Assembly: GCA_963807625.1 (NCBI GenBank)
Contig: CAWECN010000012.1
Coordinates: forward strand, 259,583 to 323,582
DNA length: 64,000 bases
Origin: an uncultured Gammaproteobacteria bacterium
GTDB lineage: Bacteria > Pseudomonadota > Gammaproteobacteria > SZUA-229
Direction: 5' to 3'
Shown: positions 20,321 to 50,233 of the stretch, piece by piece
Layout: the number at the start of each line of letters is the position of its first letter
Position numbering within the stretch: the stretch's first letter is position 1
Program-made: the position numbers and the translations under genes
The notes under the pieces: model-generated
Told to the model about the DNA's origin: nothing
The model's database searches: none
Seen by the model: the letters and a program-made list of their open reading frames with translations, nothing else

Positions 20321-20332
20321 TAGGACATAACT

Positions 20333-22750: not shown

Positions 22751-22766
22751 TGGGAGAGATAATGTC

Positions 22767-29239: not shown

Positions 29240-29632
29240 TCAGCGTTGTGGTTCTGTATAACGTCCACCATAACCAGGTCCGTAATAAGGGGCATAATTT
29301 GGCTGACGAGCATTACGATCAACACCGCCATAGTTAGAACCATCATAATTATTGTAATAACGGTCAAAGTAGATGTTTTCTGAACCATTACGCAGGTTGC
29401 CGTAGACATAACCATCAGCATCACCACGCAGTTTCATATTGAACTGGACATTCCCCTGAAGTGAACCATCACCTGAGGTATCGCCAGAACCACCATGGTG
29501 TCCCTGGTAATAACTATTGTTACGCCAGTTATTATTCCCGTTATTCCTACTATAGTTATTATCCCACCAGGCATTGGCCGAAGCTGAGATCATTAACGAC
29601 ATCATCGTTGAAACACATAGCAGATATTTCAT
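29240..29632 (-). CDS. Secreted low-complexity Gly/Tyr/Asn/Trp-rich protein, putative sulfur globule protein (Sgp-like), paralog 1
   Basis: MKYLLCVSTMMSLMISASANA is a signal peptide. The mature part is about 55% G/Y/N/R/D/W (NNYDGSNYGG, YYGPGYGGRY). A GAGGTG RBS precedes the ATG. It is paralogous to 43268..43684. Confidence 0.5.
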   Translation of the reverse strand: MKYLLCVSTMMSLMISASANAWWDNNYSRNNGNNNWRNNSYYQGHHGGSGDTSGDGSLQGNVQFNMKLRGDADGYVYGNLRNGSENIYFDRYYNNYDGSNYGGVDRNARQPNYAPYYGPGYGGRYTEPQR

Positions 29633-29813
29633 ATAGCACCTCATATGGATACATCGATTACTATACCCTGTGGACAACTATATAAAATCCATCTATCAAA
29701 TACAATAAGTGTTATAAAACCAAAAAGAGACCATCGCCGTTTTTGGCGATGATCTCATAATAATAGAGCCATCCGTGGCAAGCAGGAGTCCTTTCTGTCA
29801 GCTATGACAAGTT

Positions 29814-30974: not shown

Positions 30975-31180
30975 TTATAAACTCCCGTTTGAAAAATTAA
31001 CGAAGGGAAGCTTATTAGTGATTTGTTACTATATTGCTACAGAGTTGAGACGTTATTGTTACAACCGGAACATAACTCCTTTCAGGCAGGAAATATCCCC
31101 CGCCTGGCTTATACTCTATATAGAGGATGTAACTTTATACACATTACATCAATGTTGTTGCTGTTACTTATTAGAGAGAA

Positions 31181-31414
31181 ATGTCTATGAACAATCTGAA
31201 AGGACTGCTTGAAACAATACAGGATGATAAGGAAAAATTTATGAAAGGGTTAAGAGAACAGGATCAAGACAGAAATTATAAGACACCTGAAGTCATCGCG
31301 ATACTGGAGCTTAGTTTTGCGTTAGTCCAAGCGTCAATAATGACCTTGATGGAAGCAGAGAGAGCAAATAAAATGCAAAAGGATTCACCTATGCCTCGTT
31401 ATCATGAAGAATAA
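31181..31414 (+). CDS. Hypothetical small protein
   Basis: ORF only. Charged and helical. No family recognised. Confidence 0.3.
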   Translation: MSMNNLKGLLETIQDDKEKFMKGLREQDQDRNYKTPEVIAILELSFALVQASIMTLMEAERANKMQKDSPMPRYHEE

Positions 31415-31724
31415 TTTTCACATATTCATCATCATGCAATGTAAACAACTTAATTAATACTAGCCGTACAAAATATTTTGTGTCTGCTTGCATCGCATCA
31501 TAAGAATGCGACAGTTAAAGATATCTTAAATATTTGAATAGCTGTACAAGCGCTCACACTGATAAGATTTGCGATAGGTCTGAAAGTCAATCCATCATAT
31601 GCATGAACCGGACATGTCCGCAAATGATCCGGTAGATACAACATCCTTTTCGGTCTGGTTGCGCCAATGTATCAAAATACAACCACATTCTTTAATCTAG
31701 AGGGTCACTGTTGCCCATTAACAG

Positions 31725-31997
31725 TCATTCAAACAGGACTACGATGGCGATGATAAATATCGCTATCGCCAGTATAGATACACCCATCGCGATCGATTCC
31801 CGCCTCCAGACAGGCGCTTCGTTTTTCTCCATCTCTTGTTCCATGGCAGCGACTCTTCTCATCGATTCCTGAATACCTGCCACATATTCTTTGCTCCCCT
31901 GCTTCTGTAGTGCGATCCAGTTATGTAGTTCAGCATTAGATTTATCTTTTAATTCATACTGGTCATCTAAGTACGACATCTCTATAACCACCCTCAA
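31725..31997 (-). CDS. Hypothetical protein with a C-terminal TM anchor
   Basis: ORF only. C-terminal hydrophobic stretch ILAIAIFIIAIVVLF. Confidence 0.3.
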   Translation of the reverse strand: MRVVIEMSYLDDQYELKDKSNAELHNWIALQKQGSKEYVAGIQESMRRVAAMEQEMEKNEAPVWRRESIAMGVSILAIAIFIIAIVVLFE

Positions 31998-32408
31998 CTC
32001 GTTTATATGTAACCATGCATATATCTTTTTTGCTATCGAACGATTATTGATTAAATGCTCGACACTTCAAACTAACAGTAGTGATTGCTCAAGCATATGA
32101 CTTAAGTCAACTGCTTATAAGATGAGAGAATGCTTAAGTATTAATGTCAACAAGTGTTTGAAATCGATTGTTAGAGCCCTGGCCATATGGCTAATCACTG
32201 ACCCAGATACCAGTGAGCACGCCCTCATAACTCGTCAATGAAATGTAACTAAAGATTGACCATATTTGATAATTTCAGCACAAAGCAGACCTCCTACTAA
32301 TTTGACTGACAAAGAAAAGACGGCCCATTAAAGTCATTTAGAGAACTCTAATATTACTGTTGCTAGAGGACTACATCCGGCCCTAAAAGGACAGCCCACA
32401 ATTAAGTA

Positions 32409-33521
32409 TTATCCTTTCGGACAGCACTCGTCGTAGCTTTGAATACCTTCGCCTTTCTCATACCAGCCAATGGTTGAATTAACGACGCGAACAGCAAGCA
32501 GCATAACGGGCACTTCGATTAAGACGCCAACTACTGTAGCCAGCGCAGCCCCTGATTCAAAACCGAACAAGGCGATCGCGGTAGCGACTGCAAGCTCAAA
32601 AAAGTTACTGGCACCGATCAAAGCGGAAGGTCCCGCAACACAGTGCGGTGATTTTACTGCGCGATTAAGTAGATAAGCCAAACCTGAATTGAATAACACC
32701 TGAATCAGGATAGGTACGGCTAGCAGCAATATGATAAGTGGCTGCTTCATTATTTGTTCGCCCTGAAATCCGAACAGTAATACCAGCGTTGAAAGCAATG
32801 CGCCTAAAGACCATGGGTGAAGTGTCTTCAGTGTACGATCCAGTCTTTGTTGTCCATTGTTGCCGCTGAGTAATAATCTACGCAATATGTTGGCGATTAT
32901 CAGTGGTACAACAATGTATAGCAACACCGACAGGAACAGGGTGTCCCAGGGAACTGAGATAGACGATATACCAAGTAATAGAGCCACAATTGGCGCAAAT
33001 GCGAATACCATGATGACATCGTTTAATGCTACCTGTGTCAGCGTGAAATGAGGCTCACCTCGTGACAGGTTGCTCCACACAAACACCATCGCTGTGCAGG
33101 GCGCAGCGGCTAAAAGGATCAGGCCGGCAATATAGCTGTCAATCTGGTCTTCCGGCAACCAGCCCCGAAACAGGTAGCCGATAAACAGCCAGCCCAGCAG
33201 CGCCATCGAAAAAGGTTTTATTGCCCAGTTAACAAACAATGTGACGCCAATACCTCGCCAGTATTTACTGACGTCCTTCAGCGCTCTGAGGTCAATTTTA
33301 AGTAACATTGGAATAATCATTAACCAGATCAGGAACGCAACAGGCATGTTGATCTGTGCGACTTCAAGTTGGCCTATCCCTTGAAAAAACTGCGGTACCC
33401 AGTGACCCAACCCAATGCCTGTTACGATGCAAAGCATTACCCACAACGTAAGATAACGTTCGAAAAATCCCATGTCAGCATTCGCTGATTTTTTTGCAGT
33501 GGTTTCACATTGTACAGACAT
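32409..33521 (-). CDS. acr3: Arsenite efflux transporter, ACR3 family
   Basis: The N-terminal region is conserved with ACR3 (GFFERYLTLWVMLCIVTGIGLGHWVP...AFLIWLMIIPMLLKID). About 10 TM helices, 370 aa. Confidence 0.85.
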   Translation of the reverse strand: MSVQCETTAKKSANADMGFFERYLTLWVMLCIVTGIGLGHWVPQFFQGIGQLEVAQINMPVAFLIWLMIIPMLLKIDLRALKDVSKYWRGIGVTLFVNWAIKPFSMALLGWLFIGYLFRGWLPEDQIDSYIAGLILLAAAPCTAMVFVWSNLSRGEPHFTLTQVALNDVIMVFAFAPIVALLLGISSISVPWDTLFLSVLLYIVVPLIIANILRRLLLSGNNGQQRLDRTLKTLHPWSLGALLSTLVLLFGFQGEQIMKQPLIILLLAVPILIQVLFNSGLAYLLNRAVKSPHCVAGPSALIGASNFFELAVATAIALFGFESGAALATVVGVLIEVPVMLLAVRVVNSTIGWYEKGEGIQSYDECCPKG

Positions 33522-33526
33522 AGCTG

Positions 33527-33964
33527 TTACTCACTTTTACTTCCATTAAGATGCTGTAATAGCTTCTTAACACGCTCTTTTATGTCATCACGACTTGCAC
33601 GGAACTGATTCATGATTTCTTCTTCGCTGCCTTGTGCTTTGGCGGGGTCATTCAGTGGCCAGTGTTCTTTATTGGTGCCGGCAGGTAAAACCGGGCAGTG
33701 CTCATCAGCATGGCCGCACACGGTCACTACCAGGTCAGCATCTTGCAGCATCTTATCGGTGACTTTGGTGGATTCCTGTTGGGAAATATCTACGCCAGCT
33801 TCTTTCATCACGGCAATGGCACGCGGGTTCTTACCATGCCTTTCAATCCCGGCAGACTGGATTTCAAACAATGGCCTGCCATACCATTTCGCCCAGCCTT
33901 CAGCCATCTGTGAGCGACAGGAATTACCTGTACATAAGAATAAAATGTTAAATATTTTTTTCAT
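33527..33964 (-). CDS. arsC: Arsenate reductase, LMW-PTPase/thioredoxin-coupled type
   Basis: [19 protein letters not shown]-loop (CX5R). Downstream Cys residues are present. 145 aa. Confidence 0.85.
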
Positions 33965-33973
33965 GATTTAATC

Positions 33974-34363
33974 TTAGGCACAGCAGGCCTTGCCAGGCCT
34001 GTCGGCCATTTTATCGAGTATTTTTCTGTCTGAGATAAACGGTTCAGTATTACGCACACCATCAAGCGTTGTTTGCAGAATATCCAACGCCCAGCCCTGT
34101 AGATCAGGATTGATACGGTAGTTCATCCAGGTGCCGTTTCGGCTAGCAACAAGTACACCAGCTTCGCGTAAATGTGCCAGATGACGTGATATTTTGGGTT
34201 GCGAAAGATTCAGTGCATGAGTGAGCTCACAGACACATAACTCACCTTCAGCTTGCATTAACAATAGACAGCGTAACCGGGTGCTGTCTGCCAACATTTT
34301 AAAAAAGGTATCGGTTTCATTTAACATGGAACAAAATATACGCCCTGACATATATATGGTCAA
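33974..34363 (-). CDS. arsR: ArsR-family metalloregulator
   Basis: The ELCVCEL metal-binding motif sits within an HTH (LSQPKISRHLAHLREAGVL). Confidence 0.8.
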   Translation of the reverse strand: MTIYMSGRIFCSMLNETDTFFKMLADSTRLRCLLLMQAEGELCVCELTHALNLSQPKISRHLAHLREAGVLVASRNGTWMNYRINPDLQGWALDILQTTLDGVRNTEPFISDRKILDKMADRPGKACCA

Positions 34364-34520
34364 GCATATATTATGTCGTCCTTAATATTTAGGCCCGTTG
34401 TTGATTAGTTGCATACATATGGCGAAGATATACTTCCACTGAAGTCATAAGCTAGCTAAAACGTAATAATATAGCTTCGTATACACTCGGAAAATCGCAT
34501 TTCCTGCAATGTTCATCAAA

Positions 34521-34553
34521 TTGTCACATCCTGTAACATCCTTGTAACAATTC
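34521..34553 (+). promoter_or_regulatory. Pho box (three 11-bp-phased TGT(C/A)AC repeats) upstream of pstC
   Basis: TTGTCACATCC TGTAACATCCT TGTAACAATTC. The 7-bp PhoB half-sites recur at 11-bp periodicity. Confidence 0.6.
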
Positions 34554-34570
34554 AACGCTAGAATTCGCGC

Positions 34571-36769
34571 ATGAAAGATCAGACCTTACAGATGCGGTAC
34601 AATCGGCGGGCCCTGAAAGACCGCCTGGCACGATACTTTGTAGCTTTAGGTGGAATCAGCGTTATCATCGCTATCCTGTTGATTTTCTTCTATTTGCTTT
34701 ATGTTGTTATACCGATGTTCGGTTCAGCTGAAATTCATGAAAGCGTAACATACACTGCCCCAGCAGAAGGCAAAACTCTGCATCTCGGATTGGAAGAGCA
34801 AGGCACCATCGGTGTAAGATTCACAGACAAAGGCCATGCAATCTTTTTCGATACCGCTTCCGGCGATATTATTCAGGATGAAAATTTTGATCTGCCGGCA
34901 CCCATCAGCAGTGTCGCTGCCAATCTGGACCTCGTGGTACTTGGCCTAACTAACGGTTCAGTAATAGCGGTGCGTTACAAGTTCGACCTAAGTTATCCAG
35001 ACGATATCCGCACCCTGACGCCAAGGCTAGAATATCCATTGGGTAAAGATCCACTGACACTCGATGAGTCTGGTGAATCACTATCACATATAGCCATTCA
35101 ACTCAGTGATGACATCGTCGGCCTGGCGGCCACGACTAGTGATAACCGCCTGGTGTTTACCCGTTACCTGCGTGAACAGTCTTTCATCAGCGAAGACATC
35201 ACTATCGAACTTGAATCAAGGTCTGAACAGGCATTCGAGTATGATATCTCTTCGATCGCACTGACACCCGGGCTGGATCATCTATATGCTGCGATTGCGG
35301 GCGGTAAGCTGGAAGACTTTTCACTGGATGATGAAGGCTTCGATGGCAACAGGACAGAATATCACTTCGACCATGATATCACCCGGCTCAAACTTCTGCT
35401 CGGCGGCTCGTCTTTAATGGTCGGCATGAAGAACGGCGAAGTACAGCAATGGATGTCAGTTCGAAAAGATGGCGGCAGAGAATTAACCTTCATACGTAAC
35501 TTCCATGAGAATACAGAAGCTGTTACCACTATCGCCACCGAGCAGCAAAGAAAAGGTTTTGCCGTCGCTGATACACAAGGTGACATCACGATTTATTATT
35601 CAACATCACAAAGAACACTGGCAAACATTAACACGGCAGATGCGCAGATAGAGCAGATGGCATGGTCGGCACGTGCCCAAAACCTGATAGCGGCAGACAG
35701 TAGTAACCAGATACGACTGTACCAGGTACATAACGAGTATCCAGAAGTATCCTGGGACGTGTTATGGGGCAAGATCTGGTACGAAGGCTATGACGAAGCA
35801 GATTATATCTGGCAGTCGTCTGCTTCGACCAACGAGTTCGAACCCAAGTTCAGCTTGATGCCGCTATCATTCGGCACCATCAAGGCTGCATTTTATGCCA
35901 TGTTGTTCGCCGTGCCGATCGCCATATTAGGTGCGATATTTACCGCACAGTTCATGGCGCCACGCATGCGCCAGACGGTAAAACCATCGATCGAGATCAT
36001 GGAAGCACTGCCTACTGTTATCCTCGGTTTCCTGGCTGGTTTATGGCTCGCGCCTTATGTAGAAACGCATCTTGCAGGAATATTTACCCTGCTATTGATA
36101 ATGCCCGTTGGCTTTATAGTATGCGCATGGCTCTGGGGCTACATGCCAAACAAATCTGCCTACGAAGGCTGGGAAGCAGCATTGCTTATACCCGTGGTTC
36201 TGCTTTTGATCTGGGTTTCTATGTCCTTAAGTTCACCGATCGAGACACTCTTTTTCGATGGTGACATGCGAACCTACATGAGCAACGAATGGGGCCTGAA
36301 CTATGACCAGCGAAATGCACTGGTCGTCGGTCTGATCATGGGTTTTGCTGTTATCCCGACAATATTCTCGATTGCAGAAGATGCTTTATTCAGTGTGCCA
36401 CAGCACCTGGTGCGTGGTTCACTGGCACTGGGCGCAACACGCTGGCAGACGATGACAAGCGTGGTACTGCCGGCCGCTAGTCCAGGCATATTCTCAGCTG
36501 TGATGATGGGTTTTGGTCGTGCCGTTGGTGAGACTATGATCGTCTTGATGGCAACGGGTAATACGCCATTGATGGACATGAGCATATTCCAGGGTATGCG
36601 CACACTGGCAGCAAACCTGGCGGTAGAGGTTCCTGAAGCAGAAGTCTTCAGTACACACTATCGTGTCCTGTTCCTCGCTGCATTAATACTGTTTCTGTTC
36701 ACCTTCGTATTTAATACACTCGCAGAAATAATTCGTCAACGTTTACGCCAGAGGTACAGCGGCCTATGA
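34571..36769 (+). CDS. pstC: Phosphate ABC transporter permease PstC (long form with an N-terminal periplasmic extension)
   Basis: The C-terminal half has ABC-permease TM helices and the EAA-like loop (ALGATRWQTMTSVVLPAASPGI). The long N-terminal domain resembles pseudomonad-type PstC. The true start may be at 34592. Confidence 0.85.
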   Translation: MKDQTLQMRYNRRALKDRLARYFVALGGISVIIAILLIFFYLLYVVIPMFGSAEIHESVTYTAPAEGKTLHLGLEEQGTIGVRFTDKGHAIFFDTASGDIIQDENFDLPAPISSVAANLDLVVLGLTNGSVIAVRYKFDLSYPDDIRTLTPRLEYPLGKDPLTLDESGESLSHIAIQLSDDIVGLAATTSDNRLVFTRYLREQSFISEDITIELESRSEQAFEYDISSIALTPGLDHLYAAIAGGKLEDFSLDDEGFDGNRTEYHFDHDITRLKLLLGGSSLMVGMKNGEVQQWMSVRKDGGRELTFIRNFHENTEAVTTIATEQQRKGFAVADTQGDITIYYSTSQRTLANINTADAQIEQMAWSARAQNLIAADSSNQIRLYQVHNEYPEVSWDVLWGKIWYEGYDEADYIWQSSASTNEFEPKFSLMPLSFGTIKAAFYAMLFAVPIAILGAIFTAQFMAPRMRQTVKPSIEIMEALPTVILGFLAGLWLAPYVETHLAGIFTLLLIMPVGFIVCAWLWGYMPNKSAYEGWEAALLIPVVLLLIWVSMSLSSPIETLFFDGDMRTYMSNEWGLNYDQRNALVVGLIMGFAVIPTIFSIAEDALFSVPQHLVRGSLALGATRWQTMTSVVLPAASPGIFSAVMMGFGRAVGETMIVLMATGNTPLMDMSIFQGMRTLAANLAVEVPEAEVFSTHYRVLFLAALILFLFTFVFNTLAEIIRQRLRQRYSGL

Positions 36770-38445
36770 TTCAGCAACAAGGGATGAGCCAAAAAACAAA
36801 AGCGTGGTTTAAGAGCGGCACTCCCTGGATATGGATGAATGCCGGTGCGATCGCTATCTCACTGGTCGCCGTATTTGGTTTATTGCTGCTTATCCTGTTT
36901 CGCGGCATGAGCCATTTCTGGCCGGCGAACGTAGAGACATTTTATTATGAAAACGGCAGTAATTCGCTAACGGTCATTGCAGAGGTCGTCGAATCAGAAA
37001 TAGTACCTGCTGAATCACTTCACGGTATAGACAATGCTGGAGGCGATGCGGAAGGCAATATCGAACGTTACCTGGTGAAGACAGGCAACCGCGACATACT
37101 CGGTAGCGATTTTAGATGGTTATACGACATCGACCTTGTAAAACGTGAACAACCAGAAGAACTGATGGTCCTCGAACGAATCGAGTGGGGAAACTTCTAC
37201 GGTTACCTTAATTCAGTTTATGAGAACGATGAACTGGTTGCCAGTGGTAACCAAGCATGGCCTGAATTTAAGCAACGTCTTCGCAGAACCATCGAAATAC
37301 GTGAAAATATACTGCATCTCGAGCAGGTCGAGATCGGTGCCATCAACTACAAGCTGGAACGGTTACGCTTAAAAGAGCGAAGCTTGCAGCTTGATGACGA
37401 ATTAACCGAGGATGCAGCCAAAGAGTTAGCAGAAGTGCGCGCTGAGCTGAATCTCGAATACGAGGACCTGCTAAAAGAGACAAAGATACTTTACCAGGAT
37501 ATCAACCGCGACTCGATTCGTGCGACTGTAATGGATGGCAGTGAAGTAACTGTTCCGCTAGAGAAGATCGTCAAAGCCTGGCAGCCAAACAATATGTCCA
37601 TACCGAATAAACTTGGCTTCTACGTTTACACGTTATGGAGCTTTATTACAGAAGACCCGCGTGAGGCCAATACGGAAGGTGGCATCTTCCCGGCAATATT
37701 TGGTACCGTGATGATGGTAATGCTGATGGCAGTACTGGTCACACCACTCGGCGTTATCGCCGCAGTTTACCTTCGGGAATACGCAAGACAGGGTGTATTG
37801 ATCCGGGTTATCCGTATCGCTGTAAACAATCTTGCCGGTGTACCTTCCATCGTATATGGTGTATTTGGCCTGGGCTTCTTTATTTATTTCCTGGGTGGGA
37901 ATATCGATGCATTGTTTTTCCCTGAAGCACTACCCTCTCCCACTTTTGGCACACCAGGATTGATGTGGTCGTCGCTTACCCTGGCATTGCTGACATTACC
38001 GGTGGTGATCGTCGCCACAGAAGAAGGACTATCACGTATACCAAGAAGTTTACGCGAAGGCAGCCTTGGTCTTGGCGCAACGAAAGCTGAGACGCTGTGG
38101 CGCGTCGTCCTACCGATGGCAAGCCCCGCCATCATGACCGGATTAATCCTGGCTGTCGCCAGGGCTGCCGGTGAAGTTGCACCCCTGATGCTGGTCGGTG
38201 TTGTCAAACTGGCCCCCAGTCTGCCGCTTGATGGCAATTTCCCGTTCTTGCATCTTGACCGTAAATTCATGCACCTCGGCTTTCACATCTATGATGTAGG
38301 TTTCCAGAGCCCAAATGTCGAAGCTGCACGCCCACTGGTTTATGCGACATCATTCCTGCTCGTTGTTGTTATCGTCACTCTGAACCTGACGGCCATTAAC
38401 TTAAGGAACAGGCTGCGTGAAAAATACCGTGCGCTTGATAATTAA
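36766..38445 (+). CDS. pstA: Phosphate ABC transporter permease PstA (long form)
   Basis: GLGATKAETLWRVVLPMASPAIMTG permease signature. ATGA overlap with pstC. Confidence 0.85.
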   Translation: MIQQQGMSQKTKAWFKSGTPWIWMNAGAIAISLVAVFGLLLLILFRGMSHFWPANVETFYYENGSNSLTVIAEVVESEIVPAESLHGIDNAGGDAEGNIERYLVKTGNRDILGSDFRWLYDIDLVKREQPEELMVLERIEWGNFYGYLNSVYENDELVASGNQAWPEFKQRLRRTIEIRENILHLEQVEIGAINYKLERLRLKERSLQLDDELTEDAAKELAEVRAELNLEYEDLLKETKILYQDINRDSIRATVMDGSEVTVPLEKIVKAWQPNNMSIPNKLGFYVYTLWSFITEDPREANTEGGIFPAIFGTVMMVMLMAVLVTPLGVIAAVYLREYARQGVLIRVIRIAVNNLAGVPSIVYGVFGLGFFIYFLGGNIDALFFPEALPSPTFGTPGLMWSSLTLALLTLPVVIVATEEGLSRIPRSLREGSLGLGATKAETLWRVVLPMASPAIMTGLILAVARAAGEVAPLMLVGVVKLAPSLPLDGNFPFLHLDRKFMHLGFHIYDVGFQSPNVEAARPLVYATSFLLVVVIVTLNLTAINLRNRLREKYRALDN

Positions 38446-38473
38446 TACAGATAACTAACACATAGATGCGATC

Positions 38474-39295
38474 ATGACTGACACTATCACGACAACAATC
38501 GATGAATCACTGCTTAAAGGCTCAACCGCTACTGACGCAGACGAAATATGCATGCAGGTAAATAATCTAAGCCTGTTTTATGGTGAAGCACAGGCATTAA
38601 CTGATATCAGCTTTGAGATGAAGAAAAACCGTGTCACAGCATTTATCGGCCCCAGTGGCTGTGGCAAGTCCACCCTGTTACGCTGCTTTAACCGCATGAA
38701 CGACCTGGTCGACAGTGTTCGCGTGGAAGGTGCGATAATGCTTGATGGCGACAACATCTACGCGCCCGATGTTGATGTCACATCACTGCGCCAGCGAGTC
38801 GGCATGGTGTTCCAGAAACCCAACCCCTTCCCGATGAGTATTTTTGAAAACGTGGCTTATGGTCTACGTTTACAGGGCATAAACAAACGCCGCCACCTTG
38901 AAGAAAAAATTGAATGGGCACTTAAAGGTGCTGCTTTATGGGAAGAAGTGAAAGACCGGCTCGATGAAAGCGCACTGGGATTATCCGGTGGTCAACAGCA
39001 ACGTCTTGTTATCGCCCGTGCGATTGCTATCGAACCTGAAATTCTGTTGCTGGACGAACCCGCATCTGCACTTGACCCTATTTCCACATTGAAGATCGAA
39101 GAACTGATATACGAGTTAAAATCGCAGTACACTATCCTTATCGTTACTCATAACATGCAACAGGCAGCCCGCGTATCTGACGAGACCGCCTTCATGTACA
39201 TGGGTGAGATGATCGAGTTTGGTGAAACCAACAAGATATTCACCAATCCTGCAAGAAAACAGACTGAAGATTATATTACTGGCCGTTACGGCTAA
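38474..39295 (+). CDS. pstB: Phosphate import ATP-binding protein PstB
   Basis: Walker [13 protein letters not shown] signature LSGGQQQRL, Walker B ILLLDEP. Confidence 0.9.
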
Positions 39296-39338
39296 CTATA
39301 CAAGCAGTAATATTAGATTAAAGCAACGAGGCACATTT

Positions 39339-40055
39339 ATGGACACCAATAACACAAGCCAGCACATATCCCAGCAGTTTGACGAAGAGATGGAAGGTCT
39401 TCGCAACCAGGTATTGAAGATGGGCGGCCTGGTTGAACAGCAGATCAGCGGCGCGATCGAGGCACTGCAGAGTACCGATGCGGCAGGGGCAGAAAAGATC
39501 ATCCTCAGAGACCATAAAGTTAATGCGCTCGAAGTAAATATCGATGAGGCATGTACACAGATACTGGCCAGACGCCAACCAGCCGCTTCTGATTTAAGGA
39601 TGGTGATCGCAGTCATCAAAACCATCACCGATCTGGAACGCATCGGTGACGAAGCCGAAAAAATAGCGAAGATGGCTCTAAACCTTGCTGAAGAAGATGC
39701 GGGTTTTCATACCCGCTACGCTGGCATGCGCCACCTCGGTGACCAGGTGAAACGCATGGTTCATGATGTGCTCGATGCATACGCACGCCTGGATGTCGAC
39801 GCTGCGATCAAAGTTGTACGTGATGATGACGATGCTGATAAAGAATACCAGGACCTCATCCGCATGCTGATCACCTACATGATGGAAGATCCGAGGACGA
39901 TATCAGAAGTACTCGATGTGATCTGGGCGGCACGTGCACTGGAGCGTATCGGCGATCACGCAAAAAATATCGGCGAATATGTTATCTACCTGGTAAAGGG
40001 TAAAGATGTACGCCATCTCGATATCGAAGAAGTCGAGAAAAAGATCCTTTCATAA
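39339..40055 (+). CDS. phoU: Phosphate-specific transport system accessory protein PhoU
   Basis: Two PhoU repeats, each with E..D...RIGD (DLERIGDEAEKIAK, ALERIGDHAKNIGE). The start is the internal Met of ORF 39219..40055. Confidence 0.85.
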   Translation: MDTNNTSQHISQQFDEEMEGLRNQVLKMGGLVEQQISGAIEALQSTDAAGAEKIILRDHKVNALEVNIDEACTQILARRQPAASDLRMVIAVIKTITDLERIGDEAEKIAKMALNLAEEDAGFHTRYAGMRHLGDQVKRMVHDVLDAYARLDVDAAIKVVRDDDDADKEYQDLIRMLITYMMEDPRTISEVLDVIWAARALERIGDHAKNIGEYVIYLVKGKDVRHLDIEEVEKKILS

Positions 40056-40067
40056 TAGACGCTGATT

Positions 40068-40748
40068 ATGAAACACGCGAACATCCTGGTTGTTGAAGAT
40101 GATCCTGGCATACAGGACATGCTCAAATATTCTTTATCTGCGGAAGGTTACAACCTGCACCATGCTTACACGGTAAAAGAAGGCTGGGAGACCATCGAGA
40201 ATAAAGCGATAGACCTTGTCCTGCTCGACTGGATGCTGCCAGACAACAGCGGCATCGATCTGCTGCACCGCATACGTAAATATCATTCCATGTTGCCTGT
40301 GATCATGGTGACGGCAAAAACAGAAGAAGAGGACAGGATCCTGGGGCTGGACGTCGGTGCCGATGATTATGTAACTAAACCATTTTCTGTTCGAGAATTA
40401 AGCTCTCGGATACAGGCACTGTTACGACGCGCGATGCCCGATGAACAACCGATACAGATCGGCGAACTGTACCTCGACCCGACCAGTCACCGGGTAAAAG
40501 TTTCTGAGAAAGCATTAGACCTGTCCCCTACCGAGTTCCGCCTGCTGCACTATTTCATGTCACATACCGACCGCGTTTTCACACGCTCACAGTTACTGGA
40601 CCAGGTATGGGGATCTCAGGTCTATGTCGAAGAACGCACCGTCGATGTACATATAAGACGATTACGCAAACAGATGGCGCCATTCGGATTAGACTCATTG
40701 CTACAGACAGTTCATGGAAGTGGATACCGCTTCTCCAGGCATGGCTAA
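40068..40748 (+). CDS. phoB: Phosphate regulon response regulator PhoB
   Basis: Receiver domain (DLVLLDWMLPD) plus an OmpR-type winged helix (VDVHIRRLRK), 226 aa. Its position between phoU and phoR supports the call. Confidence 0.85.
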   Translation: MKHANILVVEDDPGIQDMLKYSLSAEGYNLHHAYTVKEGWETIENKAIDLVLLDWMLPDNSGIDLLHRIRKYHSMLPVIMVTAKTEEEDRILGLDVGADDYVTKPFSVRELSSRIQALLRRAMPDEQPIQIGELYLDPTSHRVKVSEKALDLSPTEFRLLHYFMSHTDRVFTRSQLLDQVWGSQVYVEERTVDVHIRRLRKQMAPFGLDSLLQTVHGSGYRFSRHG

Positions 40749-42063
40749 ATATAACACGATGAACTCCAGCTCCATAACTCCTAGTCTAAAGCGTGAGCTT
40801 GCTTCATTAGCAGTATGGATTTTTTTCATGCTGGTGGTCGGTACGATTACTGACTCGGTGTTTGCATTCCTGTTTATAGCTTTAGCCGTCTATGTAGTTT
40901 GGCATCTATATAATCTGAACAAGTTATACAGGTGGTTAGTCAACCCATCCAAAAAAACACCCGAAGTATTCGGTATCTGGGATGACGTATATTACCAGCT
41001 GTATCACCTGTTCAAACGACAGCGCAAAGCCCGACGTAGACTGACATCCATACTCAATCGATTCCAGAAGTCCACACAGGCATTGCCCTATGCAACGATC
41101 GTTCTTAATGAAGCAAATGAAATAGAGTGGTTTAATCCCGCAGCCAGCCAGATGTTCAATTTACATTCAGGCATCGACGTTGGGCAGCGTATCGACAACC
41201 TGATCCGTCAACCCAGGTTCGTTAGTTACCTGATAAAAAAAGACTTTGTAAAACCGCTTAAATTCCTGAACAACCACAAAAAAATCATTTTGAGTATCAC
41301 TCCTTATGGCAGCGGACAGTTTCTGATCAGCGCACGTGATATCACCTCACTGAGCCAGCTCGATGATATGCGACGCGATTTCATCTCGAATGCATCACAC
41401 GAATTACGCACACCACTCACGGTCATGTCCGGTTACATCGAATTTTTACAGCATAATGCCGATGACAAGATCAAAGCTCCGCTAGAAAAGATACAGCAGC
41501 AGACCGTGAGGATGAACCAGATCATCACTGAACTGATCGACCTGGCAAAACTTGAATCAGCCGCCGCTGTCGATTACACGAATATGATTGATATAAAAGC
41601 GCTGTTAAACGATATATATAACGAAGCGATAGCGCTCGATCAGGACAGGCATCATATTGAATTAGTTATCGAGTCCGAAACACCGGTTAATGTTCCAGCA
41701 TATAATTTGTATGGAAGTTATGAAGAATTACGCATGGCTTTTTCAAACCTGCTGACCAATGCCATCCGTTACACACCCGAAGGTGAAGATATAAAATTAT
41801 TTTCCAGTGCACACGACACAGGCATCTCCGTCGGTGTAAAGGATAGTGGTGTTGGCATCAATTATGAACACATTCCCAGGCTGACTGAGCGTTTTTATCG
41901 CGTCGATGAAGGCCGTTCCAGGGAACAGGGCGGCACCGGCCTGGGGCTTGCGATCGTAAAGCATGTACTCGATCGCCATAATGCATCTCTGCATATCCTG
42001 AGTGAGCCGGGTAAAGGCAGTACTTTCTGCTGTGAATTTCCGCTGTCTCATATCGAGCAATAA
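40741..42063 (+). CDS. phoR: Phosphate regulon sensor histidine kinase PhoR
   Basis: TM helices, a PAS-like region and an H-box (ISNASHELRTPLT), with N, G1 and G2 boxes (GGTGLGLAIV). It overlaps the phoB stop. Confidence 0.8.
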   Translation: MAKYNTMNSSSITPSLKRELASLAVWIFFMLVVGTITDSVFAFLFIALAVYVVWHLYNLNKLYRWLVNPSKKTPEVFGIWDDVYYQLYHLFKRQRKARRRLTSILNRFQKSTQALPYATIVLNEANEIEWFNPAASQMFNLHSGIDVGQRIDNLIRQPRFVSYLIKKDFVKPLKFLNNHKKIILSITPYGSGQFLISARDITSLSQLDDMRRDFISNASHELRTPLTVMSGYIEFLQHNADDKIKAPLEKIQQQTVRMNQIITELIDLAKLESAAAVDYTNMIDIKALLNDIYNEAIALDQDRHHIELVIESETPVNVPAYNLYGSYEELRMAFSNLLTNAIRYTPEGEDIKLFSSAHDTGISVGVKDSGVGINYEHIPRLTERFYRVDEGRSREQGGTGLGLAIVKHVLDRHNASLHILSEPGKGSTFCCEFPLSHIEQ

Positions 42064-42116
42064 GAACACTTCATCGATCTTAAATTAAATGACTTTGCTC
42101 TCTACCTGGGAGACAG

Positions 42117-42145
42117 CTGTAACAAAATTGTAACAACTCTGTCAT
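42117..42145 (+). promoter_or_regulatory. Pho box upstream of pstS
   Basis: CTGTAAC-AAAA-TTGTAAC-AACT-CTGTCAT. Three 7-bp repeats with 4-bp spacers, about 60 bp upstream of the pstS ATG. Confidence 0.7.
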
Positions 42146-42205
42146 TTCGCCTTCATATTTAACGCACAAAATATTCACACTTAATTAATCTGGAGTTATA
42201 AAGTA

Positions 42206-43195
42206 ATGAAACGCAACAAAGTCACATCCGTAATCAATGCGGCATTAACAGGCACTATTCTAAGCATCGGCTTATTGACTGCCGGCAGCGCAACTGCCGT
42301 GTCGGTGGATGAAGGTGTTCCTGAATATAAAGCTATCAGCGGCATTTCTGGTAACCTGTCTAGCGTAGGTTCCGACACACTGGCCAACCTTATGACTTTA
42401 TGGGCGGAAACATTCAAGCGCTCATACCCTAACGTAAACATTCAGATTCAGGCTGCCGGATCGTCAACTGCGCCACCTGCACTGACTGAAGCAACATCAA
42501 ACTTTGGCCCGATGAGTCGTAAGATGAAATCGAAAGAGATCGCTGCATTCGAAGATCGCTACGGTTACAAACCAACAGCTATTCCAGTCGCTATCGACGC
42601 CTTGGCCGTCTACGTAAACAAGGACAACCCTGTCAAAGGCATGGCCATCCCAGACGTTGACGCTGTATTCTCTTCGACCAGAAAGTGTGGCGGTGACAAA
42701 GACATCACAAAATGGGGCGACCTGGGATTGACTGGCAACTGGAAGAACCGCGACATCCAGATCTATGGCCGTAACTCGGTATCTGGTACTTATGGATACT
42801 TCAAGAAAAAAGCACTGTGTAAAGGCGACTATAAGAACAACGTAAACGAACAGCCTGGCTCTGCTTCTGTCGTACAATCTGTATCAAGCTCGATGAACGG
42901 AATCGGTTACTCAGGTATCGGTTATAAAACGTCTGGTGTACGTGCCGTACCCCTTACCAAGAAAGCAGGTGGAGAGTTTATCGATGCGACTCCAGATAAT
43001 GCGGTATCTGGTAAGTATCCGCTGTCTCGTTTCCTGTATGTTTATGTAAACAAAAAACCAAATGCAGAACTGGCCCCACTGGACAAAGAGTTCATCAAGT
43101 TGATTCTTTCAAAACAGGGTCAGGAAGTGGTAATCAAGGATGGTTATATCCCTCTACCAGCTAACGTGGTTGAGAAATATTTAAATCAGATCTAA
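42206..43195 (+). CDS. pstS: Phosphate ABC transporter substrate-binding protein PstS
   Basis: Signal peptide. PstS-family periplasmic binding fold of 329 aa. A Pho box and the adjacent pst/pho genes support the call. Confidence 0.8.
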
Positions 43196-43213
43196 ATATT
43201 TGACTTCATCCAT

Positions 43214-43244
43214 AAAAAAAGCCGGGATTACCCGGCTTTTTTTT
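43214..43244. terminator. Bidirectional rho-independent terminator (pstS / sgp-like paralog 2)
   Basis: AAAAAAGCCGGG-ATTA-CCCGGCTTTTTTTT. Confidence 0.8.
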
Positions 43245-43267
43245 GGACCATCATTAAGTAACGTAGA

Positions 43268-43684
43268 TTACTGGGCTGGAGCCGCTGGCGCAGCTGGAGC
43301 TGGTGCAGGTGGTGGAGCATAGTAACCAGGACCCGGACCATAGGCACGGCCATAATATGGGCGGTTGTAATAACCATTATAGCTGTCATAACGGTTGTCC
43401 CAACGATTATCCCAACTGTTGTCCCAGCGGTTATTGCCGTAATACTCGTTGCGTGCATTACCACGACCGCTGCCGCGCGCATTACCGCTCATGCCAAAGT
43501 TAAAACTACCGTCGACATCACCAGAACCGTCGCCATAACCGTCGCCATAGCCGTAACCGTCATTACGCATGTCATTGCGCCAGTCGTTACGCCAGTCATT
43601 GTTCCAGTTGTTGTCATCCCACGCATTCGCTGATGCTGATACGACTAACAATGCAGCTGTTGCTGCTGTAAGTAAAAGTTTCAT
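43268..43684 (-). CDS. Secreted Gly/Tyr/Asn/Trp/Asp-rich repeat protein, putative sulfur globule protein (Sgp-like), paralog 2
   Basis: Signal peptide MKLLLTAATAALLVVSASANA. Repeats WDNNW / WRNDWRND / YGYGDGYGDG / NRWDNSWDNRWDNRYD and a Pro/Ala-rich tail. An AGGAGGG RBS precedes the ATG. Confidence 0.5.
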   Translation of the reverse strand: MKLLLTAATAALLVVSASANAWDDNNWNNDWRNDWRNDMRNDGYGYGDGYGDGSGDVDGSFNFGMSGNARGSGRGNARNEYYGNNRWDNSWDNRWDNRYDSYNGYYNRPYYGRAYGPGPGYYAPPPAPAPAAPAAPAQ

Positions 43685-44093
43685 AATTCATCCCTCCTTC
43701 AGGATATATTTTCACATTTAACGCAGTTCTCACCACTCGGTAATAATACTGCTAATTCTCGATAAAATACAAACTTCATCTGTAATGTTACAAAATATCC
43801 CTACTAACACATTGATATAAATCAATAAACAACAAACCAGTCCCTTTATGAGAAACGCCTGTATGGGCTAGATAAAAATCCTGAATCTACCCCTATCGAC
43901 TGACTACGAAAACCTTGCACTTTGAGGTAGAATACGCGCGCATTTTGGTGGTTGATGATAATCGTTGTCATAAACGCGGCAATCCTCTTCAACGTTTTAT
44001 AAACGCGAAACGCCACGAAATAACAGATTTTTAATACAGAGCTGGTCATGCCTTGATTAAGGCCAGCATGATAATAACTACTGGAGAAAATAC

Positions 44094-45284
44094 ATGATTA
44101 AACCTCATGGTTCAGACGAACTAAATCCACTGTTCGTATACGATCCCGCTGCAAACGAAGCATTACAAAAAGAAGCTGAAGGCCTGGCTTCTATCCTTGT
44201 AAGTTCTGCTACAGCCGCTAACGCAGTCATGCTGGGTGCCGGTTACTTCAACCCGCTGACGGGTTACATGAATAAAGCTGATGCATTATCAGTTGCAACA
44301 GACCTGAAAACTACATCTGGCCTGTTCTGGCCTACTCCAGTGTTAAACCTGGTAAAAGATGCGGGTGGCATCAAAACCGGTGATCGTATCGCGCTTAAAG
44401 ATCCAAACGTTGAAGGTAACCCTGTTATCGCAGTCATGGATGTTGAAGCAGTCGAAGAATTTTCCGACGACGACATCAAGTTGATCACCGAGAAAGTCTA
44501 TGCGCCTGCAGCTGGTGAAGACCACCCGGGTGTTGACGCTTTTGTTGAGCAGGGTAAAGTATGCCTGTCAGGCCCTATCCAGGTACTGAACTTCTCTTAC
44601 TTCCAGACTGAATTCCCTGATACTTTCCGTACTGCTGTTGAGATCCGCAACGAGATCGCAGAACGCGGCTGGAAAAAAGTTGTTGCCTTCCAGACCCGTA
44701 ACCCGATGCACCTCGCACACGAAGAACTTTGCCACATGGCGATGGATCGTTTAGGTTGTGATGGCCTGGTCATCCACATGCTGTTAGGCAAACTGAAACC
44801 AGGTGATATCCCTGCGCCTGTTCGTGATGCTGCTATCCGTAAGATGGTTGAACTGTACTTCCCTGCTAACAGCGCAATGGTTACCGGTTACGGTTTCGAT
44901 ATGCTGTACGCTGGACCACGTGAAGGTGTATTACACGCTGTGTTCCGTCAGAACATGGGGGCGACTCACTTCATCATCGGTCGTGACCATGCTGGCGTTG
45001 GTGATCACTACGGTGCGTTTGATGCACAAACAATATTTGATGACAAGGTACCAGCCGGTGCATTGGAGATCGAGATATTCAAAGCCGACCACACCGCCTA
45101 CTCTAAGAAATTAGACAAAGTTGTAATGATGTGTGAAGCACCAGATCATGAGAAAGAAGATTTCGTTCTTCTTTCAGGTACTAAAGTTCGCGAGATGTTA
45201 GGTAACGGTATCGCACCACCTAAAGAATTCTCACGTCCCGAAGTTGCTCAGATCCTGATGGATTACTACTCAAGCCTAAAATAA
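44094..45284 (+). CDS. sat: Sulfate adenylyltransferase (dissimilatory-type ATP sulfurylase)
   Basis: QTRNPMHLAHEEL, GRDHAG and HxxH-like motifs of homo-oligomeric ATP sulfurylase. 396 aa. Confidence 0.9.
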   Translation: MIKPHGSDELNPLFVYDPAANEALQKEAEGLASILVSSATAANAVMLGAGYFNPLTGYMNKADALSVATDLKTTSGLFWPTPVLNLVKDAGGIKTGDRIALKDPNVEGNPVIAVMDVEAVEEFSDDDIKLITEKVYAPAAGEDHPGVDAFVEQGKVCLSGPIQVLNFSYFQTEFPDTFRTAVEIRNEIAERGWKKVVAFQTRNPMHLAHEELCHMAMDRLGCDGLVIHMLLGKLKPGDIPAPVRDAAIRKMVELYFPANSAMVTGYGFDMLYAGPREGVLHAVFRQNMGATHFIIGRDHAGVGDHYGAFDAQTIFDDKVPAGALEIEIFKADHTAYSKKLDKVVMMCEAPDHEKEDFVLLSGTKVREMLGNGIAPPKEFSRPEVAQILMDYYSSLK

Positions 45285-47756: not shown

Positions 47757-48230
47757 ATGCCTACTTTTGTACGTACTGAAAAGTGTGATGGATGTAAAGG
47801 CCAAGACCGTACAGCTTGCATGTACATCTGCCCACACGATCTAATGAAATTAGACAAAGACGGTTCTGAAACAGGACACGCCATGAAGTCTTACAACCAG
47901 GAACCAGAGCAATGCTGGGAATGTTATTCTTGCGTTAAAATCTGTCCTCAGAATGCTATCGAATGTCGTCACTATGCTGACGTTGTACCTTTGGGCGGTT
48001 CTGTACAGCCTTTACGTGGTACTGATTCTATTATGTGGACTATCAAGTTCCGTAACGGAAACATGAAACGCTTCAAATTCCCTATTCGTACTACTGCAGA
48101 AGGTTCTATCGATCCTTATGCTGGTAAACCAGAAGCTGACATGGCGAAGATCTCTGATCCAGGTTTCTTCAACCACATGGAACAGAACGGTTACCGTGCT
48201 GGCGATCCAAGCGAATTAATCAATAAATAA
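47757..48230 (+). CDS. aprB: Adenylylsulfate (APS) reductase beta subunit
   Basis: Two [4Fe-4S] motifs (CDGCKGQDRTACMYICP, CWECYSCVKICP) and the AprB-specific C-terminal tail. 157 aa. Confidence 0.9.
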   Translation: MPTFVRTEKCDGCKGQDRTACMYICPHDLMKLDKDGSETGHAMKSYNQEPEQCWECYSCVKICPQNAIECRHYADVVPLGGSVQPLRGTDSIMWTIKFRNGNMKRFKFPIRTTAEGSIDPYAGKPEADMAKISDPGFFNHMEQNGYRAGDPSELINK

Positions 48231-48247: not shown

Positions 48248-50233
48248 ATGGCCGAATTTGGTAATCCTGATGTTGTCGAAGAAGAAGTAGACATTCTTCT
48301 TATTGGTGGCGGTATGGCTTGTTGCGGAACAGCGTTCGAAATTCCACGCTGGATCGAAGCTTCAGGCAAAGACATTTCTGTTAAATTAGTTGATAAAGCT
48401 GCTATGGACCGTTCTGGTGCTGTTGCTCAAGGTTTGTCTGCTATTAACACTTACATTGGATCTGAACAAGATCCAGCTGACTATGCTCGTATGGTTTCTA
48501 ACGACCTTATGGGTATTACTCGTGATGACCTTGCGTACGACTTAGGTCGCCACGTAGATGAGTCTGTTCACCTGTTCGAAGAATGGGGTCTGCCTATTTG
48601 GAAAACGGATGAGAATGGCGAGCGTTTTGACGGTTCTAAAGGTATGACATCATTGAAAGATGGTGGTAAGCCTGTACGTTCTGGTAAATGGCAGATCATG
48701 ATCAATGGTGAATCTTACAAATGGATCGTCGCTGAAGCTGCTAAGAAAGCTTTAGGTGTTGATCGTATTGATGAGCGTATCTTCATCGTTAAATTAATCA
48801 ACGACAAAAACGACCCTAGCAAAATTGCTGGTGCTGTTGGTTTCTCTACTCGTGATGACAAGATCGTTGTATACAAAGCTAAGGCAATCCTTCTGGCTGC
48901 TGGTGGTTGTGTAAACATCTTCCGTCCACGTTCTGTTGGTGAAGGTACTGGTCGTGCATGGTACCCAGTATGGAACGCAGGCTCTACATACTCAATGGCT
49001 GCTGAAGCAGGCGCTGAGTTAACACTGATGGAAAATCGTTTCGTACCGACTCGTTTCAAAGACGGTTACGGTCCTGTTGGCGCATGGTTCCTGCTGTTTA
49101 AAGCACAGGCTACTAACGCATACGGCGAAGCTTACATGCAGAAAAACAAAGACATGCTAGACGACTACCCTCCTTACGGTGCGGCTGCTGTCCCTGCTTC
49201 TTGTCTGCGTAACCACTTAATGCTTAAAGAGATGAAAGACGGTAACGGTCCTATCTGGATGGATACTGTAACTGCTCTTGGCAACCTGCGCGAAACTCTG
49301 TCTCCTCGCGAAGTTAAGCATCTGGAAGCTGAAGCATGGGAAGATTTCCTTGACATGTGTGTTGGTCAATGTGGTATCTGGGTTGGTGAGAACATTGAGC
49401 CAGAGAAGAAAAACTCTGAGTTAATGCCTACCGAACCATACCTGTTAGGTTCACACTCTGGTTGTTGTGGTATATGGACTTCTGGTCCTGATGATGTTGG
49501 CGCGCCTACTACTGAGACAGAGCCTGGTGTACCTGATCACCTTCCACAAGGTTGGAACTGGGGCTACCGCGGCATGACTACTGTAAACGGTCTGTTCACA
49601 GCAGGTGACGGTGTTGGTGCTTCTGGCCACAAATTCTCTTCAGGCTCTCATGCTGAAGGTCGTCTGTGTGCCAAGTCTATGGTTAAATATGTACTGGATA
49701 ACGCTGATTACCAGCCTGAATTAGATACTTCCGTTGAAGATCTGGTTGCTGAAATCTACCGTCCAGTTCGCACATTCCTTGAGCATAAAGACTACACAAC
49801 AGCAATCGACGTTAACCCTAACTACATCACTCCTAAGATGCTGCAGTTCCGTCTGCAGAAGATTATGGACGAGTATGTAGCTGGTGTTGCAACTTATTAC
49901 AACACTAACGCCGAAATGATGAAAGTTGCTGGCGAAAAGATCGACATGCTTAAAGAAGACGCTATGAAGATGCGTGCTAAAGACCTTCACGAATTACTTC
50001 GTGCCTGGGAAAATTATCACCGCATAATCACTGCTGAAGCTCATCTGAAACACATCGAGTTCCGTCAGGAATCACGTTACCCAGGTTTCTACTATCGTAC
50101 AGACAAGAACTTTGTCGACGAAGAAAACTGGCATTGTTTCGTGAATTCAATTTACGACAAGAAAACTCAAAAGTTCACATGCTTCAAGCGTGCGCACGTT
50201 GATTTGGTAGACAAGTCTAAACTGTTCAAGTAA
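48248..50233 (+). CDS. aprA: Adenylylsulfate (APS) reductase alpha subunit (FAD flavoprotein)
   Basis: N-terminal FAD fold (DILLIGGGMACCG). AprA-length protein of 661 aa. It lies immediately after aprB. Confidence 0.95.
   Translation: MAEFGNPDVVEEEVDILLIGGGMACCGTAFEIPRWIEASGKDISVKLVDKAAMDRSGAVAQGLSAINTYIGSEQDPADYARMVSNDLMGITRDDLAYDLGRHVDESVHLFEEWGLPIWKTDENGERFDGSKGMTSLKDGGKPVRSGKWQIMINGESYKWIVAEAAKKALGVDRIDERIFIVKLINDKNDPSKIAGAVGFSTRDDKIVVYKAKAILLAAGGCVNIFRPRSVGEGTGRAWYPVWNAGSTYSMAAEAGAELTLMENRFVPTRFKDGYGPVGAWFLLFKAQATNAYGEAYMQKNKDMLDDYPPYGAAAVPASCLRNHLMLKEMKDGNGPIWMDTVTALGNLRETLSPREVKHLEAEAWEDFLDMCVGQCGIWVGENIEPEKKNSELMPTEPYLLGSHSGCCGIWTSGPDDVGAPTTETEPGVPDHLPQGWNWGYRGMTTVNGLFTAGDGVGASGHKFSSGSHAEGRLCAKSMVKYVLDNADYQPELDTSVEDLVAEIYRPVRTFLEHKDYTTAIDVNPNYITPKMLQFRLQKIMDEYVAGVATYYNTNAEMMKVAGEKIDMLKEDAMKMRAKDLHELLRAWENYHRIITAEAHLKHIEFRQESRYPGFYYRTDKNFVDEENWHCFVNSIYDKKTQKFTCFKRAHVDLVDKSKLFK

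Follow-up and report, generated by a model that had tools for sequence, protein, structure and literature searches.

A Putative Sulfur Globule Protein Gene Divergent from sat in an Uncultured Gammaproteobacterium

Gene and Coding Evidence

The window analyzed here is the whole stretch of 64,000 nucleotides (nt) between positions 259,583 and 323,582 of contig CAWECN010000012.1 (assembly GCA_963807625.1), which derives from an uncultured gammaproteobacterium. On its minus strand an open reading frame (ORF) with an ATG start codon lies at 43268..43684 and encodes a protein of 138 residues followed by a stop codon. This ORF had been described in an initial annotation as the second of two genes for putative sulfur globule proteins (Sgp) and is referred to below as sgp paralog 2. 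The coordinates given there were exact and the translation of 138 residues was identical to the one obtained here, and all four of the motifs quoted (DWRNDWRNDMRND, GYGYGDGYGDG, NRWDNSWDNRWDNRYD and the tail PPPAPAPAAPAAPAQ) were found in the product. No structural components of bacterial sulfur stores are known other than sulfur globule proteins, which show poor conservation, often escape annotation and have been investigated in only a handful of organisms.

A scan with one genome per species detected 28 sgp-related loci (numbered below with the prefix L), all of them in gammaproteobacterial metagenome-assembled genomes (MAGs), one of which is labelled Thiotrichaceae. The reading frame, a Met-Lys start and the overall architecture are kept in all 28, and Sgp paralog 2 matched the family hidden Markov model (HMM) with 188 bits. 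Strong purifying selection acts on the gene, with ratios of nonsynonymous to synonymous substitution rates (dN/dS) of 0.06–0.14 at dS values of 0.66 to >3 against the 12 orthologues for which values could be computed. These low ratios in the sgp frame exclude the overlapping alternative ORFs.

A Shine-Dalgarno sequence (GGAGGG, 43692..43697, minus strand) lies 7 nt before the ATG, with GGAGG invariant in 15 aligned upstream regions. Downstream, a bidirectional intrinsic terminator (43214..43244) composed of A7, GCCGGG, ATTA, CCCGGC and T8 serves both sgp and the convergent pstS. The RNA of its minus strand was predicted to fold with −29 kcal/mol (z −6.0), and none of 200 shuffled sequences folded as well. 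This terminator was missed by a consensus promoter/terminator scanner, probably because A-T pairs extend the stem. Paralog 2 is a real, conserved and monocistronic gene that codes for protein, and it has both a strong ribosome-binding site and its own terminator. An exact-sequence look-up in a large protein collection returned no entry for this Sgp protein, nor for the Sat protein encoded beside it.

Layout of the Predicted Protein

Manual reading of the leader identified residues 1–21 (43622..43684; this and the following blocks are on the minus strand) as a Sec-type signal peptide, MKLLLTAATAALLVVSASANA, made up of MK, the hydrophobic stretch LLLTAATAALLVV with a core of 13 residues, and SASANA. 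Signal peptidase I is predicted to cut after Ala21 and before Trp22; neither a Cys lipobox nor a twin-arginine motif was seen in the leader. In an alignment of 29 sequences, residues A19, A21 and W22 show little or no variation, giving Ala at −3 and −1, and this conservation supports Sec export with cleavage after Ala21. As expected of a sulfur globule protein, the product would thus carry a cleavable, Sec-dependent signal peptide directing it to the periplasm. A helix was placed by AlphaFold at residues 7–18, within the signal peptide.

The mature protein would have 117 residues and a mass of about 13.3 kDa, and is acidic, with an isoelectric point of 4.5. Together, Gly, Asn, Asp, Tyr, Arg, Ala, Pro and Trp account for 89% of its residues, with Gly at 16%, Tyr at 12% and Asn at 15%, while Cys, His, Ile, Lys, Leu and Thr are absent. 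It is strongly hydrophilic, with a grand average of hydropathy (GRAVY) of −1.61, and 22% of its residues are charged.

Following the leader, a Trp/Asp/Asn/Arg repeat block (residues 22–42, 43559..43621, WDDNNWNNDWRNDWRNDMRND) holds three 12-nt WRND units, in the third of which the Trp is replaced by Met; Tandem Repeats Finder (TRF) reported periods of 12 and 24 at 43559–43612, and the orthologues in L005 and L010 have three intact DWRN units. Next comes a Gly-Tyr-Gly-Asp block (residues 43–55, 43520..43558, GYGYGDGYGDGSG), detected by TRF with a period of 12, 2.8 copies and 90% matches at 43521–43554, in which G45, G49, G51 and G55 are invariant across the 29 aligned sequences. The non-repetitive core (residues 56–79, 43448..43519, DVDGSFNFGMSGNARGSGRGNARN) is the best-conserved part family-wide, with G59 invariant and F61, M65, G67 and G75 at least 90% conserved, and is also found in distant members of the Pfam family PF17228, for example in the proteins P0003 and P0037. 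The WDN(R/S) block (residues 85–100, 43385..43432, NRWDNSWDNRWDNRYD) has a period of 12 and 3.6 copies at 43390–43432, and its copy number differs among orthologues, in line with slippage by 12 nt. It is followed by a Tyr/Gly/Pro-rich block (residues 101–122, 43319..43384, SYNGYYNRPYYGRAYGPGPGYY) with P109, Y110, Y115, G116 and Y121 nearly invariant, and by the Pro/Ala tail (residues 123–138, 43271..43318, APPPAPAPAAPAAPAQ), the DNA of which gave TRF periods of 9 and 15 nt. The tail is conserved across the clade and in distant PF17228 members. It should also be noted that some relatives (L022 1229..1810, P0045, P0098 and P0108) have a long C-terminal extension rich in Lys, Glu, Gln and Met, which looks helical or coiled-coil and lies before or after the Pro/Ala tail.

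The periodic repeats noted initially exceed what chance would give, as the period-4 self-match of the mature protein was 44 against 11.7 ± 3.3 in composition-preserving shuffles (z 9.7), with z 8.0 for period 8, and three 12-nt arrays were reported by TRF. An AlphaFold2 model built with 18 sequences had low confidence, with a mean predicted local distance difference test (pLDDT) score of 46; the tail was the only mature region at pLDDT 70–79, and the helix of the signal peptide was the only secondary structure. This model fits an intrinsically disordered structural protein, and in being small, repetitive and rich in Gly and Tyr the product agrees with what is expected of a structural protein of sulfur globules.

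Relationship to the Sulphur Globule Protein Family

Against the Pfam family PF17228 ("Sulphur globule protein"), which we take to have been built around SgpA/SgpB (CV1/CV2) of Allochromatium vinosum, Sgp paralog 2 scored 17.8 bits (E 0.006) over model positions 6–90 of 93, the curated gathering threshold being 26.7 bits. This threshold was passed by four of ten syntenic orthologues (L002, 31.3; L003, 28.2; L006, 48.7; L019, 33.4 bits); five others scored 20–26 bits and L012 had no match at E ≤0.01. Among the 29 aligned relatives, 26 matched PF17228 at E ≤0.01, the best with 9.5e-15. No NCBIfam match was obtained for either sgp paralog. Two further Pfam matches, to TrAA12 (18.3 bits, cut-off 30.9) and to the plant GRP model, were dismissed as compositional.

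Database searches gave a similar picture. All four matches of a single-sequence search carried a precomputed PF17228 assignment, as did most of the profile matches, and a search with the 29-sequence profile retrieved "sulfur globule protein CV1" of the Solemya velum gill symbiont (8.9e-28); this name and "sulfur globule family protein" come from NCBI or UniRef. When 1.84 billion cluster representatives were searched exhaustively with HMMER, only 205 clusters (50% identity) were found at E ≤0.001. These have in common the leader, a central "DG..F.F.MSG..RG" block, a PYGY/PYYG region and a Pro/Ala/Val tail. Because the shared core is non-repetitive, the similarity to PF17228 is not merely compositional. 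Although failing the threshold alone, Sgp paralog 2 is filed here as a member of PF17228 by transitive homology.

Genomic Neighborhood and Synteny

On one flank of sgp paralog 2 lie pstC-pstA-pstB-phoU-phoB-phoR-pstS, with pstS convergent to sgp. On the other, sat (44094..45284) is transcribed divergently from sgp and is followed, in order, by an ApbE-family gene, a GBBH-like/ThiS gene, aprB (47757..48230) and aprA (48248..50233), with a DsrE-family gene farther on. Conservation of this arrangement was counted by tblastn of the window genes against the 28 related loci. A divergent sgp-sat pair is present in 12 of them (L001–L007, L010–L012, L017 and L019), and in 11 of these 12 apbE, the GBBH/ThiS gene and/or aprBA come next, as far as the contig stretches reach. 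Paralog 2 is syntenically fixed beside sat, apbE and aprBA. The position between a Pho module and sat, which the initial annotation had pointed out, is true of the window, but only its sat side is conserved; the pstS/pho flank is lineage-specific, being present in only four of the 12 loci (L005, L007, L012 and L017), and msrA takes its place in seven loci (L002, L003, L004, L008, L010, L011 and L019).

In the window msrA (28506..29120) lies beside the other copy, sgp paralog 1, and the two sgp paralogs, which have the same orientation, enclose a block of some 13.6 kb with the gene for a phosphate-selective porin, arsR-arsC-acr3 and pstCAB-phoU-phoBR-pstS (28506..43684). The placement of a single sgp directly between msrA and sat in seven related loci suggests that this block was inserted, either by itself or together with a duplication. 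The simplest reading is an ancestral order msrA-sgp-sat, with the block coming to lie between two sgp copies in the lineage of the window. The nearest relative found was MAG JABDRN01 "Site_C30", with 91% identity in Sgp, 98% in Sat and 97% in AprA.

Paralog 1 and sgp Copy Number

Sgp paralog 1 (29240..29644, minus strand) encodes 134 residues from its first ATG and is located downstream of the phosphate-selective porin gene. Its leader also ends in SASANA|W, in agreement with the matching leaders noted initially. Paralog 1 is far more diverged, as BLASTP aligned the two paralogs with 43% identity over 82 residues (E 1e-5). When all six frames of the window were scanned with the HMM, only these two sgp copies were detected. 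Orthologues of paralog 1 are P0009 and P0013, the latter encoded in a further locus on a metagenomic contig, L029, with the order porin-sgp-msrA as in the window. Paralog 1 lies 170 nt downstream of Porin_O_P on the same strand (29240..30974; L029, 4673..6393) and might be co-transcribed with this phosphate porin.

The two copies had been likened to the several Sgp of known globule formers, a parallel that is borne out by related MAGs, where two to three dispersed copies as well as tandem arrays occur and up to six sgp-like ORFs are present in L009. The arrays comprise three to six sgp-like genes (L009, 5553..11028; L014, 8443..10489; L021, 1166..4003). Multiple sgp copies have also been reported for cultured sulfur storers (PMC10386293; PMC6509183).

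Upstream Region and Predicted Regulation

A perfect palindrome of the FNR/CRP family, TTGAT-N4-ATCAA (43812..43825, TTGATTTATATCAA), is located 141 nt upstream of the sgp ATG. At 21 nt downstream of it lies a hexamer on the minus strand, TAACAT (43785..43790), presumed to function as a −10 element, which reads TAATAT or TATTAT in orthologues; the T at either end of it is invariant across 15 loci and its spacing from the box is fixed at 21–22 nt. The perfect box is present at the same place in the 11 sat-linked loci without an insertion (L001–L005, L007, L010–L012, L017 and L019) and in L026, and with one mismatch in L013 and L028. It was absent upstream of paralog 1, in L029 and upstream of most paralogs with an "ASADWGPW" leader, L026 and L028 being the exceptions. 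In L006, an insert of about 3.6 kb (2726..6330) separates sat from sgp, the box is missing upstream of sgp, and the insert may contain a gene for a signalling-domain protein.

About 41 nt separate the center of the box from the inferred transcription start downstream, and class II FNR-dependent promoters of Escherichia coli have this box-to-start geometry. With a box near −41.5, a −10 element and no good −35 element, the region upstream of sgp apparently fits a class II FNR promoter. Exact TTGAT-N4-ATCAA sites number three in the window against 0.21 expected. The other two were found at 5074..5087, between a gene of unknown function encoding 476 residues and a type III glutamine synthetase (GSIII) gene, and at 26857..26870, between pgm and a dksA-like gene; they speak neither for nor against the FNR inference. 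In the literature searched, no paper linking FNR with sulfur globule proteins was found.

A second strongly conserved block of the sgp-sat intergenic region, at 43900..43990, reads AAAATGCGCGCGTATTCTACC on the sgp strand and is probably the sat promoter, because TAGAAT lies on the sat strand. A conserved hairpin was also seen near the ribosome-binding site of sat. No Pho-box-like site was detected in the intergenic region (43685–44093) at up to three mismatches. Elsewhere in the window, two overlapping sites of this kind were found at 42128..42156, 50–80 nt upstream of pstS, and another upstream of the porin gene (31255..31272).

Host Metabolism and Other Genes of the Window

The AprA of the window is 85–88% identical to that of Thiobacillus, Sulfurivermis fontis and Chromatiaceae, and 91–95% identical to unnamed metagenomic proteins. 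As its closest named counterparts are AprA proteins of sulfur oxidizers, it is of the oxidative type and the host can be taken as a probable sulfur oxidizer. Sulfur genes of the window include sat, aprB, aprA and a DsrE-family gene.

Distant from sgp, a gene cluster on the plus strand (13665..24575) encodes an Mrp/MBH-like membrane complex with MnhE, MbhD, MnhB/MbhE, an antiporter-like subunit of 1066 residues and NuoH-, NuoB-, NuoC- and NuoD-like subunits, after which follows a 602-residue Fer4_20/Pyr_redox_2 protein resembling GltD or sulfide dehydrogenase. The NuoD-like subunit has no CxxC NiFe ligands, so the complex resembles the MBX/MBS type and not a hydrogenase. An IS110-family transposase on the minus strand (10240..11363) is divided between two overlapping ORFs (DEDD_Tnp_IS110 and Transposase_20) and may be frameshifted or a pseudogene.

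Proposed Role and Alternative Explanations

We infer from homology and genomic context a role in sulfur globules, namely that sgp paralog 2 encodes a genuine globule envelope protein of an uncultured marine sulfur-oxidizing gammaproteobacterium, with a probability of roughly 0.7. The Sgp-like identity proposed at the outset is supported both by the PF17228 relatives and by the sat/aprBA context. The Sgp proteins of A. vinosum are Sec-exported structural proteins of the globule envelope (PMC10386293). Sgp paralog 2 would likewise be exported by Sec to the periplasm with its leader cut after ANA (Ala21), and the mature protein, probably together with paralog 1, would assemble into a thin envelope on periplasmic globules of elemental sulfur, as SgpA/B/C do in A. 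vinosum. The sulfur would be made during oxidation of sulfide or thiosulfate and later be oxidized by way of sulfite, with AprBA and Sat, encoded next to sgp, acting thereafter. It is expected that the regularly spaced Trp and Tyr side chains would probably face the sulfur, while Asp, Asn and Arg would probably form a hydrated, salt-bridged outer face and the Pro/Ala tail an extended spacer; more speculatively, Trp or Tyr at every fourth residue between Asp, Asn and Arg suggests an amphipathic, salt-bridged sheet or coat. The probable transcription start is about 94 nt before the ATG, at a class II promoter on which a regulator of the FNR/CRP family would act as activator, and this would tie the synthesis of this sgp copy to low oxygen or another redox signal.

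A number of points weigh against this reading. By itself Sgp paralog 2 falls below the PF17228 threshold (17.8 against 26.7 bits) and paralog 1 has no Pfam match at all, and in a family of such low complexity the similarity could be partly compositional. The SgpA/B/C proteins of A. vinosum are described as extremely hydrophobic (PMC10386293), whereas the mature protein at hand is hydrophilic (GRAVY −1.61) and lacks this trait, though the published "hydrophobic" may refer to solubility behavior rather than to a hydropathy index; the A. vinosum proteins were set beside Sgp paralog 2 by their published description only. No sox, fcc, sqr or dsrAB genes were seen in the 64-kb window and no gene for an FNR-family regulator, and the two other exact boxes are not beside classic FNR targets. 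The clade of the window is, furthermore, known from sequence alone, and sulfur storage by the organisms behind the MAGs is a presumption.

Several of these points would suit a secreted, disordered, low-complexity protein of the periplasm or envelope with a role other than globule coating, such as a cation-binding or matrix protein or a general envelope or stress protein, of which the likeness to true Sgp would be only distant or compositional. The sub-threshold Pfam score, the unmatched paralog 1, the reliance on sequence for the clade and the hydrophilic, acidic composition can all be read in this way, as can the DGYGDGSGDVDGS stretch, which resembles acidic Gly/Asp calcium-binding loops, and the weak, spurious-looking matches to the Gly-rich models TrAA12 and GRP. 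Such a role is considered unlikely, as the PF17228 matches span the full model and reach 48.7 bits in orthologues despite the composition correction of HMMER, the non-repetitive core motif is common to distant PF17228 proteins, the relatives detected all come from gammaproteobacterial MAGs or thiotrophic symbionts, and the adjacency to sat/aprBA is conserved. Far less probable is that sgp paralog 2 is a member of the Pho regulon tied functionally to the adjoining pst/pho genes. The gene does lie directly after pstS with a terminator common to both, the pst/pho block is flanked by the two sgp copies, and paralog 1 follows a phosphate-selective porin on the same strand both in the window and in L029. 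However, sgp converges on pstS, which precludes co-transcription, and the pst/pho genes occupy that side in only 4 of 12 sat-linked loci, with msrA there in seven loci. The Pho-box scan led to the rejection of this membership, since pstS and the porin gene have such sites and the sgp-sat intergenic region has none at up to three mismatches, its conserved upstream element being an FNR-type box instead. There is next to no chance that the ORF is a fortuitous one in repetitive DNA, even though the DNA is internally repetitive and ORFs of 66–84 residues in other frames overlap it. This is already refuted by the pattern of conservation, with dN/dS of 0.06–0.14 at dS of at least 0.66 in the sgp frame and with the frame, start codon and GGAGG kept in 28 related loci; a terminator and a signal peptide are present as well.

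With a globule envelope protein as the preferred reading, it is possible, if rather doubtful, that the sat-proximal genes form a distinct subclass with Trp/Asp/Asn/Arg repeats, placed under an FNR-type oxygen or redox switch so that the envelope is remodelled on a shift between oxic and anoxic conditions, with the paralogs that have no box (one of them with the phosphate porin) following other signals. If this were true, such a shift would alter what the globule envelope is composed of and, with it, the storage of sulfur. The locus leaves the understanding of sulfur storage as such unchanged. It offers a well-supported example of sgp from an uncultured clade of marine sediments, seeps and vents, together with a practical sequence signature (WDNR repeats and the conserved core), a positional marker (divergent from sat, beside apbE and aprBA) and a regulatory hypothesis (the FNR-type box).

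Comparison with Known Sulfur Globule Proteins

The best named match of the family profile was CV1 of the Solemya velum symbiont (P0005; 8.9e-28, and 2.3e-42 among the cluster representatives). It resembles Sgp paralog 2 in overall architecture and contains NNWDNRY and a Pro/Ala/Val tail. It differs in that identity is 36% over about half of the query, its leader ends in ADW-DMPFF and its core is rich in Arg and Gly with acidic "DADADAD" stretches. Also in contrast to Sgp paralog 2, CV1 is not encoded beside sat/apr; its neighbors are genes for the pentose phosphate pathway and Fe-S assembly. Two identical sgp copies were seen in this symbiont (GCA_000787395.1; JRAA01000002.1; L030 and L031), about 260 kb apart on one contig and in unrelated neighborhoods.

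A likeness by description only can be drawn to the sulfur globule envelope protein ALG67575.1 of Beggiatoa leptomitoformis, which is described as having a mass of about 15 kDa, prolines at regular intervals and a cleavable N-terminal peptide, as being without a marked conserved domain and as induced by thiosulfate (PMC7356093). Disruption of sgp in that organism abolished both globules and lithotrophic growth (PMC7356093), and in a SUP05 isolate the abundance of Sgp changes with the oxygen regime (PMC6509183); such findings bear out the function of the class. Sulfur globule proteins have also been likened to plant glycine-rich and keratin-like proteins (PMC10386293), and Sgp paralog 2 shares Gly/Tyr-rich repeats with the glycine-rich cell-wall proteins of plants (PF07172, GRP) and with keratin-like Gly/Tyr proteins. 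Its match to PF07172 was sub-threshold (E 0.18, with 0.0036 as the best value among relatives; cut-off 30 bits), and this likeness is compositional and not a matter of membership.

With PF17228 as a whole, Sgp paralog 2 shares a length of about 100–150 residues, a Sec leader, a repetitive mature part rich in Gly and Tyr, the central "DG-F-F/M-MSG-A/G-RG-GRG" block, the "PYGY/PYYG" region and the Pro/Ala/Val tail, as well as several paralogs per genome and an apparently sulfur-oxidizing gammaproteobacterial host. Unlike the wider family, it is sub-threshold, hydrophilic on the Kyte-Doolittle scale, enriched in Trp and in Asp, Asn and Arg, and built with WxNx repeats. These features extend to the clade of the window, in which Trp amounts to 5.1% against 2.3% in the wider family and Asp, Asn and Arg together to 34% against 23%, with 5.2 four-residue W-x-N-x units per protein against 0.3. 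Judged by these comparisons, the WDNR repeats are a clade-specific elaboration on a known family.

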